In this document: positions 13,605-20,539 of the stretch, piece by piece
How positions within the stretch are numbered: position 1 is the stretch's first letter
Layout: the number at the start of each line of letters is the position of its first letter
Origin: Candidatus Heimdallarchaeum aukensis
Lineage (GTDB): Archaea; Asgardarchaeota; Heimdallarchaeia; Heimdallarchaeales; Heimdallarchaeaceae
NCBI GenBank assembly: GCA_021513695.1
Contig: CP084166.1
Location: forward strand, 1,440,001 to 1,504,000
Length of the DNA: 64,000 nucleotides
Direction: 5' to 3'
The notes under the pieces: model-generated
What the model was told of the DNA's origin: nothing
The model's database searches: none
Seen by the model: the letters and a program-made list of their open reading frames with translations, nothing else
Made by a program: the position numbers and the translations under genes

Positions 13605-14534
13605 TCATTTCTCTTCTTTCTTTTTGTTTTCATTTTTTATAATTAACAAAATACGTTCCCATATAGAGTCTAGCAATGAGTGAATAACTCTTTGTTGATC
13701 TTGTGTTTCAATAATAGAGATTCGATGTCTATTTGCTTCTTCAACTAGATATCTCTGAATAGTTCGTATTTCCTCAAAAGCATTAATATATCGTTCTGCG
13801 TTTCTTTCTACAACTTTTAACCCCCTCCTCTTGAAACGTTCAAGATGCTCATGCTCATCTTTTAAGTGGAGAAGAAAAAGCATTACATGAGGTTGGGTTA
13901 TTGTTTCTGTTTTAAACAAGTTAGGAGATAAATGGACACCTTCAATAATTGTATTTTCTCTAGAATACATAGCCGATTCAATGATAGCCTCAACACCCAC
14001 AATGACTAATCTACTTTGTTCTTCAAACCCAACAATACTTCTATCTAAAATTGGGTTTATTTCAGGTTTTAAGTACTTATAAGCTTCATATGAGCTCCCA
14101 TATAACTCTGGGACTAGTTTTTTTGAAATACTTTGCCTTAATATCTCTCTTACCATATCAGTTCCAATAATATTTGTTATTTCTAGCCTTCGGGAGAGCA
14201 ATGAGGCAATTGTGCTTTTTCCTATTCCAGGCACTCCAGCTAATAAGATAATAATTGGTTTATATACTCCCTTTTGCTCAAAAGCAATGTATCTCTTAGC
14301 ATATAAAGGATTAAATTTTTCGAGATTATCAATAATTATCTGAGAAAAAGCTTCTTGAGAGAGTGTTTTGTCTGTTTTTCCTACTTGTAATTCGATTTGG
14401 GTTGCTAGTTCATAAGCATTAATTTCATCTAAGCCTATAGCATAAAAAGTACGAGAAAGAATACCCTTAGAAAAAATAGTTTTTCTTCCTGATTTTGTCC
14501 TAAATTTAATAAAGTTAGATGAAGGTTTACTCAT
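13605..14534 (-). CDS. 2-phosphoglycerate kinase family protein
   Basis: N-terminal ATP-cone-like region (FSKGILSRTFYAIGLDEINAYELATQIE). It also has the P-loop AGVPGIGKST and IIEGVHL, the pattern of archaeal 2PGK (COG2074-type). Confidence 0.8.
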   Translation of the reverse strand: MSKPSSNFIKFRTKSGRKTIFSKGILSRTFYAIGLDEINAYELATQIELQVGKTDKTLSQEAFSQIIIDNLEKFNPLYAKRYIAFEQKGVYKPIIILLAGVPGIGKSTIASLLSRRLEITNIIGTDMVREILRQSISKKLVPELYGSSYEAYKYLKPEINPILDRSIVGFEEQSRLVIVGVEAIIESAMYSRENTIIEGVHLSPNLFKTETITQPHVMLFLLHLKDEHEHLERFKRRGLKVVERNAERYINAFEEIRTIQRYLVEEANRHRISIIETQDQQRVIHSLLDSIWERILLIIKNENKKKEEK

Positions 14535-14677: not shown

Positions 14678-15568
14678 ATGAACTTTGAATCCCCAATATA
14701 CGTGAAGAGAGAGCAAGCAAGTTATTTATTTAGCAGAGGGATTCTGGCTACAAGACTAGAGGTTATAGGTCTTGAGTTTCAACAAGCTTATGAATTATCT
14801 AACAAGATATATCTAAAAATCAAAAAATTATCTGAAAATACAATATCCAAGAATAAATTAGATGAATTTGTTTATGATTCAATTAAAGAAAAATATTCTG
14901 AAAAACTAGCTGAAGAATACTTAACAATCGAAAAATTAAGAGATACAAATATACCTTTGTGGATTGTTATTGCAGGAGCTATTGGAGTGGGAAAAAGTAC
15001 ATTATCAAGGAAAATCGCTTCAGACTTTGGGATTAGGCATGTAATTGGAACAGACATAGTAAGAGATATTTTAAGAAAAACACTATCTAAAGATATTGCT
15101 CCACAGCTGCATTCTCCTTCATATTTAGCTTATAAAACATTAAGACCAATTTATAGTACACGTTACGATGAAGTGATTATTGGTTATGAAAATCATTCAA
15201 AATATGTTAATATTGGAATCGAAGCTCTGTTAAATAGAGCTGCAATGGAAAACATTTCAATAATTATTGAAGGAGAACATTTACTGCCTTCTTTTTTTGA
15301 CAAAGAAACAATAAAAATTTCAAATTTAATCTACATCACTATCTCTTTAGAAAATGAAAAGATGCATTTAGAAAATTTAAGTTCACAGTATTCTAGAGAA
15401 AAAGAAGAGCTAATTAAAAACTTTAAAAATATTCGGAAAATTCATGATTTCCTTGTCCACGAAACAAAAATCAGAAAGTTACCTGTTATCGAAGCTAAAG
15501 ATAAAGATGTGGTACTTGCAAATGTGAGAAAATATATTATTGAAAAAGCTAAAAAGATAGTTTTCTGA
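14678..15568 (+). CDS. 2-phosphoglycerate kinase family protein (paralogue, divergently transcribed)
   Basis: Same architecture as 13605..14534 (FSRGILATRLEVIGLEFQQAYELSNKI, the P-loop AGAIGVGKST, and IIEGEHL). Confidence 0.8.
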   Translation: MNFESPIYVKREQASYLFSRGILATRLEVIGLEFQQAYELSNKIYLKIKKLSENTISKNKLDEFVYDSIKEKYSEKLAEEYLTIEKLRDTNIPLWIVIAGAIGVGKSTLSRKIASDFGIRHVIGTDIVRDILRKTLSKDIAPQLHSPSYLAYKTLRPIYSTRYDEVIIGYENHSKYVNIGIEALLNRAAMENISIIIEGEHLLPSFFDKETIKISNLIYITISLENEKMHLENLSSQYSREKEELIKNFKNIRKIHDFLVHETKIRKLPVIEAKDKDVVLANVRKYIIEKAKKIVF

Positions 15569-16525: not shown

Positions 16526-17458
16526 ATGGGATATCTATTTATTGTAAACCCTCACTCAAGAAATGATGAAGTCAAAAAGAGATGGCCAATAATAGAAGAT
16601 GAAATTAAAAAAAGAAACTTGGATTATCAAGTAGAATTTACAAAAGGAAGAAGACACGCAACTGAAATAACAAAGGAGCACATAAATGATTTTGACGTTT
16701 TTGTTTCTTGTGGAGGAGATGGAACAGTTAATGAGGTTGTGAATGGTCTAGCTGAAACAAATAAAGTTCTTGGAATGTTACCTTTAGGAAATGGAAATGA
16801 TTACGCTAACTTACTTCACGTTAGGGGTTCATATGTTCAGACCCTTAATATTCTTGAAGAGAACAAAATAGCAGAGTTAAGCCTGGGGGTAGCCACAGCA
16901 GATACAAAACACTATTTTGTTAATATAGCTGAAACAGGAATTACATCAATTATTGCTAAAGCATCATATACAGAATTAAAATGGATAAAAGGATTACCTA
17001 AATATTATATTCTCGGATTGAAGAAAATTTCTAGCTACAAATCTGTCCCAGCTTATATAAAAGTTGACGATTATGAAAGAAAAACTAAACTGATTCTTTG
17101 TGCTGTAGGTCTTGGTTACCGTTTTGGGGGAGGATTTAATGTTTTACCTGGAAATCAACCATATTTTGGTGATTTTCAAGTTTGTATTGCCGGAGATGTT
17201 CCTAAAATAAAATGGTATTGGATGATCAACAAAATAAAAAATGGAACACATGGAAATATTAAAGGTGTAGATATTATAAGAGGTAAGAAAATTGAAATAG
17301 AAACTGAAACACCATTACCTATAGAAGGAGAAGGAGAGGTGTTCAGTGAAAATTCAACCACAGCAAAATTTGAGTTATCACAATCAAAGTTAAAAATCAT
17401 TGTTGGAAAAGAATTCTTAAAAAATAAAATTGAATTCGAAACAAGAAATAAAAAATAA
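16526..17458 (+). CDS. diacylglycerol-kinase-family lipid kinase (YegS/DAGK catalytic domain)
   Basis: 310 aa with VNPHSRN, VSCGGDGTVNEVVNGL and LPLGNGNDYA motifs. Confidence 0.85.
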   Translation: MGYLFIVNPHSRNDEVKKRWPIIEDEIKKRNLDYQVEFTKGRRHATEITKEHINDFDVFVSCGGDGTVNEVVNGLAETNKVLGMLPLGNGNDYANLLHVRGSYVQTLNILEENKIAELSLGVATADTKHYFVNIAETGITSIIAKASYTELKWIKGLPKYYILGLKKISSYKSVPAYIKVDDYERKTKLILCAVGLGYRFGGGFNVLPGNQPYFGDFQVCIAGDVPKIKWYWMINKIKNGTHGNIKGVDIIRGKKIEIETETPLPIEGEGEVFSENSTTAKFELSQSKLKIIVGKEFLKNKIEFETRNKK

Positions 17459-17545
17459 AAATATTCAACGATTTTGATTTTTAACAAAGTTTATTTTTCT
17501 AAAATCCCTTAATATTATCAACAACGATACTCTGAGGAAAATTTA

Positions 17546-17998
17546 ATGCACAAGGGGTTTATAACTAAAGAATTAACCAATGATGAAATAAGTCACAAAA
17601 AAATATTCATTAAAGTAGAAGACAGAATTTTGTTTCCTCATGGTATTTTTTTTATTGACTACCTAGACAATTCCTTTGGAGTTTATTTATCCAATAGAGG
17701 ATTTTTAGAAGGATTAGAATCATGGTTTGAAGAATTTCCTTCTTTAAAGAAGGGAGACATTGTTATTATCGCTAAACATAGCTCGGGCTTTTCTTTGAAC
17801 ACAACCTCACCAGTTGTTCAGTCTCAGATTTCTTTGATAATGGAAATGCAAAGAGTACAAATGTTGACTGAAGAGGATATTCTATGTCCAAACTGTTACT
17901 ACTCCTTAGAAAAAGAAAAACTCCCTGAAGATTCTCCTCACTTATTAAAATTAAAATGTGGGCGTTGTGGATTTATTCTTATAAAAACCAAAATTTAA
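17546..17998 (+). CDS. hypothetical protein: N-terminal beta-rich (B3/AbrB-like?) domain plus C-terminal zinc ribbon
   Basis: 150 aa and a paralogue of 18063..18530. The C-terminus has CPNC...17 aa...CGRCG. Confidence 0.6.
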   Translation: MHKGFITKELTNDEISHKKIFIKVEDRILFPHGIFFIDYLDNSFGVYLSNRGFLEGLESWFEEFPSLKKGDIVIIAKHSSGFSLNTTSPVVQSQISLIMEMQRVQMLTEEDILCPNCYYSLEKEKLPEDSPHLLKLKCGRCGFILIKTKI

Positions 17999-18062
17999 CT
18001 TTTAAAAGAAATTTTAGTAGAAAATTATTTAATCAACATCATATTATTGGATATGTTAAACA

Positions 18063-18530
18063 ATGCATGTTGGATTTATCATCCGAGAATTAACCGAGGA
18101 AGAGATTAACCATAAGTGCTTATATGTTTTTGAAAAAGACAGAATACTTTTTCCTAATACAGGAGTTTTATTTTTTGTTGAATCCTATGAAGAGACATAT
18201 GGAGTAAGAATAGATCAAGATGGATTTCTTAGAGGATTAGAAACATGGTTTACAAAATATCCTCATAATCCTGGCGATACGATAATCATCGCAAAAACTT
18301 CTGAAAGTTTTTCTTTAAGTAGTTCTTCTGAGCTCATTCAACAAATTATTGGAGAATCATATGAAAAAGTTCGTGTTGATGAAATGGATGAGAAATCAGA
18401 AGCATGTCCAAATTGTCAATATCAACTAGAAATGGCAGCTAAAAAAGAAGAACGAATCATTTTCAAGTGTGCACGTTGTGGATTTACAATGGTTAGAAAA
18501 ATAAAAGATAATGAAAATGAAGAAGATTAA
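18063..18530 (+). CDS. hypothetical protein, tandem paralogue of 17546..17998
   Basis: 155 aa, alignable along its whole length with its neighbour (MHxGFIxxELTxxEIxHK, DRILFP, GFLxGLExWF, GDxxIIAK, FSL, CPNC, CxRCGF). Confidence 0.6.
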   Translation: MHVGFIIRELTEEEINHKCLYVFEKDRILFPNTGVLFFVESYEETYGVRIDQDGFLRGLETWFTKYPHNPGDTIIIAKTSESFSLSSSSELIQQIIGESYEKVRVDEMDEKSEACPNCQYQLEMAAKKEERIIFKCARCGFTMVRKIKDNENEED

Positions 18531-18540
18531 GTTTTTTATT

Positions 18541-18819
18541 TTAGGTGTAAAAAAACAGTGCACTCCCGATAACTCCTAAAATAAGAATTAAGAAAACTGA
18601 AGTAATAAAGACATTCTTTGCTTTTTCTATTTTCAAGCATCTAGAACATAATAAAAGTTTAACATTTTGCGGCTTTTGAGGAGAAAACATTGCTGAAATA
18701 GCATTTGTTTTCCAATATTCATTAGTGCATGAAGTGCAAATAGGCTTATAACATCTATTACATCTTGTCTCGGCATTGACCTCAGTGTGAATATAACATT
18801 TTTCTTCCATCATTATCAA
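18541..18819 (-). CDS. small membrane-anchored zinc-finger (B-box-like) protein
   Basis: 92 aa. It has CYIHTEVNAETRCNRCYKPICTSC plus a second CSRC, and a C-terminal hydrophobic helix (FITSVFLILILGVIGSALFF). Confidence 0.45.
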   Translation of the reverse strand: MIMMEEKCYIHTEVNAETRCNRCYKPICTSCTNEYWKTNAISAMFSPQKPQNVKLLLCSRCLKIEKAKNVFITSVFLILILGVIGSALFFYT

Positions 18820-19238: not shown

Positions 19239-19865
19239 ATGATGGAGGAAATGATACACAATATTTGGATTGCTAAGGATACTGGTGAATGTCTATATCA
19301 TAGAAGATTTAATGATGACATCAACATAGATGAGAATTTAATAACCAGCTTTCTCTCTGCAATTGAAATTTTTGCTCAAAATGTCGATTCTGGCTGTGAA
19401 CAGCTTGAAACAAAAAGGTACAAATTCATCTATGCACAAACAGATAACACTGTCACAGTTGCTTGTATTGACAAAAATGATGATGATACCTATATCAAGA
19501 AAGAAGTAGAAGCAATTCAAAATGAGTTTAAATCCCGTTTCAGTAAAATGTTAGAAAATTGGAATGGAAGAGTAGAGTTATTTAGTACAATGGATGAATT
19601 CGTCGATAAAAGATTATCTTCCTTTAATTCCATTCTTGGTTCGTTTAAGAATAAAAAACTGGAGCTGAATGAGATGATTATTAAGCAAAAACCTAAATTA
19701 AAACTCAGTCCTCAGCAAGAGAAAGTCATATCACTGATCAGATATAAAGGGACAGCCACGTTACAGGACATTTGTAAATGGATGAAATTAACTGAGCCAG
19801 ATGCAGAAATAGCTGCAAAGAGCCTTTTACACAATAATATTATACGTGAGGTTACAGGCGCTTAA
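19239..19865 (+). CDS. longin/roadblock-like domain protein with C-terminal winged helix
   Basis: 208 aa. The N-terminal ~110 aa show an alternating beta-beta-alpha-beta-beta-beta-alpha pattern (IWIAKDTGECLYHRRF...LITSFLSAIEIFAQNV...YKFIYAQTDNTVTVACID...EVEAIQNEFKSRF). An ENWNG motif follows. The C-terminus has a wHTH-like stretch (EKVISLIRYKGTATLQDICKWMKLTEPDAEIAAKSLLHNNII). Confidence 0.5.
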   Translation: MMEEMIHNIWIAKDTGECLYHRRFNDDINIDENLITSFLSAIEIFAQNVDSGCEQLETKRYKFIYAQTDNTVTVACIDKNDDDTYIKKEVEAIQNEFKSRFSKMLENWNGRVELFSTMDEFVDKRLSSFNSILGSFKNKKLELNEMIIKQKPKLKLSPQQEKVISLIRYKGTATLQDICKWMKLTEPDAEIAAKSLLHNNIIREVTGA

Positions 19866-20129
19866 CTATTTCTTTTTCTCTTTTATTTCCTTCTTTGGTG
19901 AAGAGTTACTCATCCACTCAGGTTCAGTTTGTTTTCCAAATTCTTTATTGAATTCTTGAACTAAAACTCTAGCTTGTTTAGCGGTATTTACTGTCATTAT
20001 TTGTTTTTTATAAACATCTATTCGTTTATTGCAATAGGGACATTGCTTTGTTTTCTGTCCTGTTTTGCAATAAGAGAATTTTCCACAATATCTGTTTGAA
20101 CAACGTACTATTGTATACACACTTTTCAC
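19866..20129 (-). CDS. DUF1922-like zinc-ribbon protein
   Basis: I infer a GTG start at 20129 overlapping the upstream TGA (GTGA). It has a Cys4 ribbon (RCSNRYCGKF...QCPYCNKRI). The longer ORF 19866..20204 would overlap the YjbQ gene. Confidence 0.55.
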   Translation of the reverse strand: MKSVYTIVRCSNRYCGKFSYCKTGQKTKQCPYCNKRIDVYKKQIMTVNTAKQARVLVQEFNKEFGKQTEPEWMSNSSPKKEIKEKKK

Positions 20130-20539
20130 TGTCCAATGATTGTAACTGCGACTCTTCGATGTCTGCTTCTCACATCTAGACAAATAAAAACTGGTTGTTG
20201 CCATGTTCCTAACTGTAACCGTGAATTATGAATAGATAAAGATAAACTTGGACCAATTAAACTTGCTCTTAAGTGTGAATGAGCGTTTGAATCAATCATG
20301 TCGTGTTTATATCCCGCACCTTTTGGGACTAGTTTCTCTAATATCTGTTTAAAGTCACTTAGTACTCTTGATTCATACTCTATCGTAGTTAAAGCTCCCG
20401 TAGAACCTATTACATTTGCAGACAAAATACCATTCTTTATTTTTGATTTAGAAACAAGATCTTCAAACATTGAAGTTAGATCTACAATAGTTATTTCTCC
20501 TTTTGTATCAAATTCTAGTATTTCAGAATAGACATTCAT
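20126..20539 (-). CDS. YjbQ/UPF0047 family protein (secondary thiamine-phosphate synthase family)
   Basis: 137 aa with ITIVDLT, GSTGALTTIEYE, NAHSHLRASLIGPSLSL and LGTWQ motifs typical of the family. Confidence 0.8.
   Translation of the reverse strand: MNVYSEILEFDTKGEITIVDLTSMFEDLVSKSKIKNGILSANVIGSTGALTTIEYESRVLSDFKQILEKLVPKGAGYKHDMIDSNAHSHLRASLIGPSLSLSIHNSRLQLGTWQQPVFICLDVRSRHRRVAVTIIGQ

Follow-up and report, generated by a model that had tools for sequence, protein, structure and literature searches.

We analysed a 64,000-nucleotide (nt) window of the Candidatus Heimdallarchaeum aukensis genome (CP084166.1; all positions are given in window numbering), in which two adjacent, co-directional open reading frames (ORFs) lie on the forward strand: ORF A (17546..17998, 150 aa) and, 64 nt further downstream, ORF B (18063..18530, 155 aa). 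Each encodes a B3-like pseudobarrel, a helix and a zinc ribbon. BLASTP aligned the two proteins over their full length with 62 identities among 149 positions (42%; 62% positives, E=8e-36), a similarity far above chance level. An earlier note on this DNA, made from the sequence alone, had described a pair of full-length paralogues at exactly these coordinates, and the alignment bears this out. The ORF B product has a counterpart of 100% identity in Ca. Heimdallarchaeum aukensis, and that of ORF A is 99% identical to a protein of a Heimdallarchaeaceae metagenome-assembled genome (MAG). When compared with the orthologues of Ca. Heimdallarchaeum endolithica, the ratio of non-synonymous to synonymous substitution rates (dN/dS) was 0.047 for A and 0.064 for B, so both are functional coding genes. 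A profile scan of all six frames returned A and B as the sole matches in the window (GC content about 31%), with no third copy.

AlphaFold2 models built from family alignments reached a mean predicted local distance difference test (pLDDT) score of 85.8 for A (about 90 over residues 11–90) and 85.6 for B. Both models contain the same succession of elements, namely β1, a short helix, β2, α1, β3, β4, β5, α2, β6, β7, a long helix and a three-stranded ribbon. Residues 1–88 of A (17546..17809, + strand) were modelled as a seven-stranded pseudobarrel with two helices (pLDDT about 90), its elements being β1 (residues 5–9), the short helix (12–16), β2 (about 20–21), α1 (24–29), β3 (34–39), β4 (42–48), β5 (53–55), α2 (58–63), β6 (72–78) and β7 (81–86). 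An acidic linker follows (residues 89–110, 17810..17875), the helix of which (89–105) was predicted at lower confidence (pLDDT 69–80). The C-terminal residues 111–150 (17876..17995) form a basic, three-stranded C4 zinc ribbon (isoelectric point (pI) 8.45), with cysteine codons at 17885-17887 (C114), 17894-17896 (C117), 17957-17959 (C138) and 17966-17968 (C141). In B, likewise on the + strand, the pseudobarrel spans residues 1–89 (18063..18329; pLDDT 89–95 from residue 11, about 76 for residues 1–10), while residues 111–155 (18393..18527) comprise the C4 zinc ribbon and a disordered acidic tail, with cysteine codons at 18405-18407 (C115), 18414-18416 (C118), 18468-18470 (C136) and 18477-18479 (C139). 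Two CxxC knuckles about 20 residues apart enclose a three-stranded antiparallel sheet, as expected for a C4 zinc ribbon. The N-terminal motif and the CPNC...CxRCGF C-terminus to which the earlier note had drawn attention were seen in the A/B alignment and are kept across a 42-sequence family alignment, in which G45, G56, W60, F61, D71, S88, C114, P115, N116, C117, L121, C138, C141, G142 and F143 are invariant.

The modelled barrel corresponds to the DNA-binding pseudobarrel fold (SCOP 101935), a seven-stranded open barrel with two capping helices in the order β1-β2-α1-β3-β4-β5-α2-β6-β7. For the B model, the structural-match figures were 11.7 with FUS3, 10.6 with VRN1, 10.4 with RAV1, 10.0 with At1g16640, 9.9 with LlaJI.R1-N and 9.6 with BfiI-C. 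Foldseek, an independent method, ranked LlaJI.R1-N and FUS3 at the top, each with a probability of 1.00. Since models and Foldseek comparison agree, the proposal of a B3 / EcoRII-N-like fold next to a zinc ribbon in the earlier note was correct, and its AbrB-like alternative was not. Neither the best structural match nor interleaved β-hairpins point to a swapped-hairpin barrel, and an N-terminal domain of the AbrB/MazE/MraZ type is extremely improbable.

At the level of sequence the barrel stands apart. The N-terminal ~90 residues fall under no Pfam or NCBIfam model, the Pfam B3 model (PF02362) matched neither A nor B nor any of 9 N-domain sequences even at E<=10, and two sequence profile searches of the PDB returned no pseudobarrel or B3 chain. 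HHalign against a profile of RAV1, TEM1, NGA1 and VAL1 (sequences verified) gave a probability of 1.5–3%, which is too low for a B3 family link; the alignment paired the motifs in the expected register (T-x-S-D with L-S/T-x-x-E, FP with FP, G-W-S-R-F with G-x-S-x-W-F, GD with GD). Thus, the motif logic that the earlier note had seen in common with B3 (L-T-x-x-E, FP, G-x-x-x-W-F and GD) occurs in shared register, while the profile–profile comparison it had proposed yielded no sequence-level link to B3, and the Pfam, NCBIfam and PDB profile searches yielded none to B3, EcoRII-N or any solved structure. The barrel is a new sequence family within a known fold.

This family is confined to Heimdallarchaeota, as profile searches and a scan of GTDB species genomes revealed when we followed up the phyletic distribution, another check suggested beforehand. 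When 1.84 billion representatives were searched exhaustively with a hidden Markov model (HMM), no more than 10 proteins passed E<=1e-3. A profile search of a 5.8-billion-protein set found 38, nearly all of 138–165 aa and of matching architecture, which, where named, belong to Heimdallarchaeota or Heimdallarchaeaceae MAGs. About 40 clusters of the family were recovered, all from Heimdallarchaeota, and the GTDB scan found 19 loci (a lower bound given the narrow scan pattern), all in Heimdallarchaeota or unlabelled Asgard bins. The combination of pseudobarrel and zinc ribbon is a new domain architecture restricted to Heimdallarchaeota, and a search of the accessible literature turned up no earlier account of B3-like proteins from Asgard archaea. 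One clade B-like metagenomic member (P0012, 133 aa) is without about 17 residues over β2, α1 and the invariant FP motif; its barrel therefore cannot be complete, and either degeneration of this copy or an artefact of assembly or gene calling may be the cause.

The gene is single-copy across the 19 species-level loci, H. endolithica excepted. Tandem pairs were found only in the window, in H. endolithica, in the genome that encodes the proteins P0003 and P0008 (consecutive locus tags) and at the locus L001, where paralogue B is inverted yet still adjacent to A. A distance tree separates three roughly equidistant groups, namely the A and B clades and a large clade of single-copy genes. The single copy is the ancestral state, and the A/B duplication occurred only in the Heimdallarchaeum lineage. 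B, the conservative paralogue, has retained ancestral features and lies slightly nearer to the single-copy proteins; the derived paralogue A has a 2-aa deletion after the FP motif, a 3-aa insertion in the ribbon, Pro89 in place of the family Glu and the least acidic charge.

Three remote barrel relatives, the only ones detected by sequence, emerged from the HMM search and gave convincing alignments with the Heimdall barrel at 24–29% identity. P0017 carries the domain N-terminal to AAA_5/McrB_lid (McrB GTPase), with a McrC gene next to it. This is the architecture of LlaJI.R1, for which site-specific DNA binding through the N-terminal B3 domain has been described (PMC7680126). In P0019 the domain is C-terminal in a protein with an Mrr_cat nuclease, and two N6_N4 DNA methyltransferase genes lie alongside. 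From these two contexts it follows that the nearest kin of the Heimdall barrel include restriction-system DNA-reader modules. The third relative, P0015, is a stand-alone protein of 193 aa in a housekeeping-type context. Its family, at the locus L035 (2628-3209), represents a non-nuclease, basic version of the barrel behind an unassigned N-terminal region of ~95 aa on a housekeeping-type contig (M24 peptidases, DeoC, TRAM), which suggests that domestication of the reader domain occurred more than once. A 308-aa gene upstream of this relative was considered as a counterpart of the diacylglycerol-kinase-like (DAGK) neighbour of A and rejected (BLASTP E 1.4, no DAGK domain). Taken together, the architecture of barrel, acidic linker helix and zinc ribbon, and the ancestry of the barrel, can be stated with high confidence.

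Among the known systems closest to the Heimdall proteins is the N-terminal B3-like domain of LlaJI.R1 (Helicobacter pylori, PDB 6c5d), the DNA reader of an McrB-family GTPase, with which the Heimdall barrel shares no significant sequence similarity (13–16% identity in structural alignments). In contrast to LlaJI.R1, A and B are acidic, have a zinc ribbon instead of an NTPase or nuclease and reside in a housekeeping context. Likewise, against the restriction readers BfiI-C (3zi5), EcoRII-N (3hqf), R.NgoAVII (4rd5) and UbaLAI (5o63), the Heimdall domain stands out as a nuclease-free, minimal barrel of 88 aa. The plant B3 domains (FUS3 6j9b, RAV1 1wid, VRN1 4i1k, At1g16640 1yel; PF02362) have a like fold, whereas the Heimdall barrel differs from them in charge and in the arm that grips DNA, as detailed below. 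To our knowledge, plant B3 domains are partnered with AP2, ARF or PHD-like modules and never with a zinc ribbon of the Heimdall type, and the pseudobarrel itself has two known settings only, the plant B3 transcription factors and bacterial restriction-enzyme DNA readers.

A restriction-reader context, in which a nuclease or NTPase is combined with methyltransferase or defence genes, was found only around the remote P0017 and P0019 and not around A/B. Within the conserved neighbourhood (the window and 19 species-level genomes), no nuclease, NTPase, methyltransferase or mobile-element partner was detected, and no PADLOC defence family matched the barrel. An origin from a defence system or phage was rejected, as no PADLOC or PHROG family matches the barrel. 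Rather, the window neighbourhood is housekeeping-like: it comprises two P-loop kinases resembling 2-phosphoglycerate kinase (PGK), an ARMT1-like phosphatase, a YegS/DAGK lipid kinase and the A/B pair, followed by a small Cys-rich membrane protein, a tRNA-Thr, an ORF termed orf208, a DUF1922 protein, YjbQ and a 783-aa ORF. The proteins might still be stand-alone specificity subunits that serve a restriction or defence system with its nuclease or motor at another locus, since their nearest sequence relatives are components of McrBC and of Mrr or restriction–modification systems. However, besides the missing partner genes and the missing PADLOC match, the syntenic position is fixed in 19 species-level genomes instead of patchy, and strong purifying selection with lineage-wide vertical inheritance is atypical of defence islands; we regard such a role as very unlikely.

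Because the gene is single-copy in a housekeeping neighbourhood of 19 species-level genomes, without a defence match and with a dN/dS of ~0.05, we favour domestication. An ancestral restriction-enzyme DNA reader would have lost its enzyme partner in Heimdallarchaeota and gained a zinc ribbon; it would then have become a fixed, vertically inherited chromosomal gene, duplicated to A and B only in the Heimdallarchaeum lineage. The protein would be a small, transcription-factor-like regulator that binds nucleic acid, with the cleft between N-arm and C-arm and the basic zinc ribbon jointly making the contact and with A and B perhaps acting as a pair. We count the adjacency that the pair keeps at L001, even with B inverted, in favour of this explanation. 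The chances that A and B are domesticated restriction-enzyme DNA readers acting as such regulators appear about even to us.

DNA binding is the pivotal point. The pseudobarrels characterised so far all bind DNA, using the N-arm and C-arm to contact the major groove; the phosphates at the two ends of the site are clamped by two basic residues, of which the C-arm Arg is reported to be spatially conserved in all B3-like structures (PMC3973309). In the Heimdall family, five basic barrel positions are conserved in the sequence alignment, namely K18 (76%), R27 (90%), K32 (74%), K68 (71%) and K77 (93%). K18 lies four residues after the invariant E14 of L-T-x-x-E and is basic in 76% of the members and in all three fused relatives; judged by its alignment position, it is a candidate counterpart of the N-arm lysine that clamps a phosphate of the bottom strand (K23 in EcoRII-N and its RAV1 equivalent). 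In addition, K137, R140 and K147 are near-invariant in the zinc ribbon and C-terminal tail, both of which are basic.

A number of observations weigh against DNA reading by the barrel. It is acidic in 41 of 42 members (pI 4.2–6.7, net charge -12 to 0), whereas the fused relatives (pI 9.1–9.7) and the plant B3 domains (pI 8.0–10.1) are basic, with net charges of +1 to +9 in both, and the median pI of 6.45 among the window ORFs indicates that the proteome is not acidic overall. The C-arm hairpin (β4-β5) has 13 residues in 41 of 42 members versus 19–20 in RAV1, NGA1 and VAL1. No basic residue is conserved at positions 44–56, position 47 being His in 27 members, Tyr in 11 and Arg in 2, so that, judged by sequence and secondary structure without residue-level superposition, neither a C-arm of the usual length nor a clamp Arg was recognised. 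A D-[KH]-x-N-R-I loop common to the fused relatives is lost. Searches with Pfam, PDB profiles and HHalign linked the family by sequence to no characterised DNA binder. Finally, phylogenetic footprinting of 22 diverged loci recovered no conserved operator candidate upstream of the gene; only a Shine-Dalgarno (SD)-like box and a T-run/A-run element recur. On the other hand, the C-arm of the fused relatives, which are presumably functional readers, is short as well (14 residues), and this favours retained binding.

The same features could be read as signs that the barrel was repurposed and no longer reads DNA but binds a protein or ligand, or mimics DNA, with the basic ribbon as a tether to nucleic acid, RNA polymerase or another partner. 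Its charge is reversed compared with every DNA-binding relative, many surface acidic positions are strongly conserved (E14, D26, E38, E42, D/E58, E80, E89 and E100), and the shortened C-arm without a conserved clamp Arg, the loss of the N-R loop of the fused relatives and a ribbon like the RNA-polymerase-associated TFIIS/Rpb9/Elf1/TFS4 type all fit such a change. Yet several of the conserved acidic residues are fold features of plant B3 domains too (the Asp of the S-D and G-D motifs and the acidic β3 end), the five conserved basic positions remain, and overall net charge predicts site-specific binding poorly; moreover, no function of a pseudobarrel other than DNA binding is documented in PMC3973309. 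We judge a repurposed barrel, the main rival reading, to be unlikely.

The ribbon raises a further alternative, in which the proteins would be RNA-binding or would serve the translation or transcription machinery as accessories, mainly through the zinc ribbon, as do ribbons of ribosomal-protein type or the small zinc-ribbon proteins of archaea. In line with this, the ribbon weakly matched S27ae, L44e, L37ae, Rpb9, the TNB domain of Cas12f and a 'translational regulator' of PHROG, and one database source calls a member RPC12/RpoP. But all zinc-ribbon matches at the C-terminus fall below the curated cut-offs (Pfam, NCBIfam) and are generic to zinc ribbons, as is also true of the sub-cut-off likeness to the N-terminal ribbon of NrdR and the C4 ribbons of TFIIS, Rpb9 and Elf1; by sequence, the ribbon is not assignable to one specific ribbon family. 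A mainly ribbon-based role would also leave the highly conserved barrel, ~60% of the protein, unexplained, and we consider it improbable.

Returning to the domesticated DNA reader, binding of DNA or another nucleic acid with a regulatory role has, in our view, a roughly fifty-fifty standing: this function is plausible but unproven, and the counter-signals are real. We infer both the regulatory role and the cooperation of A and B. In its most specific form, the proposal would be that Heimdallarchaeota joined a zinc ribbon to a restriction-reader barrel and so independently obtained a chromosomal transcription factor present throughout the lineage, with an A/B heterodimer at composite sites in Heimdallarchaeum; this we put forward tentatively.

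Whether or not it binds DNA, the family documents for an Asgard lineage a pseudobarrel that is free of a nuclease, passed on vertically and joined to a new partner domain. This lineage is relevant to eukaryote origins: Heimdallarchaeota are among the closest archaeal relatives of eukaryotes. Since the nearest relatives of the family still sit on McrBC- and Mrr-type enzymes and the Heimdall family itself is nuclease-free, it represents a second, independent case of this module leaving restriction systems to become a housekeeping gene. If the transcription-factor reading is true, archaea would offer a parallel to the way in which the plant B3 transcription-factor superfamily is proposed to have arisen; the route between plant B3 domains and restriction readers is debated, with common ancestry and horizontal transfer as the options (PMC3973309). 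If the proteins bind DNA, they would form a new archaeal regulator family and offer a minimal 88-aa B3-like scaffold for specificity studies. If they do not, theirs would be, as far as we know, the first pseudobarrel with a non-DNA role.

We also inspected the non-coding sequences around the pair. In the region upstream of A (17459..17545, + strand), the DAGK stop codon is followed by oligo-T runs, a TATA-like element (TTTATTTTT, 17490-17498) and a GAGG SD-like box (17534-17537). An SD-like purine box was present at 20 of 22 diverged non-redundant loci (1.3 expected), and an upstream element made of T-run, core and A-run at 11 of 22 (1.6 expected). This arrangement fits termination of the upstream gene followed by an own promoter and a leadered mRNA. 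The 64-nt spacer between A and B (17999..18062, +) has an A/T-rich box (TTTTAAAAG) directly after the A stop codon and no SD-like box ahead of B; B may thus be translated differently from A, for example from a leaderless or coupled message. A 7-mer, ATCAACA, common to the upstream regions of A and B in the window, was discarded, as it is absent from the orthologous loci and expected by chance according to a rough estimate.

Two neighbours of the pair are conserved, which answers another check proposed in the earlier note. The YegS/DAGK-type lipid kinase gene (DAGK_cat + YegS_C; 16526..17458, +) lies directly upstream and co-directional in 12 of the 19 species loci, and ~4 kb off and inverted in 5 more. 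Downstream, orf208 (19239..19865, +) directly follows the single-copy gene in 15 of 19. The latter protein is 55–60% identical across Heimdallarchaeota and had no Pfam, NCBIfam or PDB match; winged-helix-type hints at its C-terminus (MreA, Sul12a) were sub-threshold. It may be a functional partner or another regulator. The synteny of both genes lies within one archaeal lineage and is no proof of a functional link, and we treat them as context.

In H. endolithica (L007, 5406-6866; L014, 1140-1269 and 3111-3911), a TnpB-like gene (Cas12f1-like_TNB, 486 aa) separates the ARMT1-like gene from DAGK. On its far side there are short DAGK-like fragments, and DAGK is called at 277 aa instead of 310, which suggests that an insertion sequence element entered DAGK at its 5' end, immediately upstream of the A/B pair. 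The single-copy genomes L010-L013 carry two genes of eukaryote-signature type about 1–2.5 kb upstream of DAGK, for a 407–427-aa small GTPase (Arf/Gtr1-RagA-type) and an IFT52_GIFT/DUF4350-like protein of ~665 aa, which flank the block of DAGK and B3-like gene; in L013-type genomes the GTPase–DAGK segment is inverted, which parts DAGK from the B3-like gene.

Further observations concern the remaining window genes. The two P-loop kinases (13605-14534, - strand, and 14678-15568, + strand) are divergently transcribed paralogues of about 300 aa each, of AAA_18 / AAA_17 type and 2-phosphoglycerate-kinase-like, the second with a weak, sub-threshold ATP-cone match at its N-terminus. Convergent with ORF B, a 92-aa Cys-rich protein (18541-18819, -) combines a weakly B-box-like zinc-binding N-terminus with a hydrophobic C-terminal segment; it matches no family and is conserved in H. 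endolithica (87%) and L001 (62%). The listed DUF1922 ORF (19866-20204, -) overlaps the end of the YjbQ ORF (20126-20539, -) by 79 nt. Its Pfam match starts at residue 30 and orthologues are called at 77–83 aa, and the true DUF1922 start is probably further downstream.
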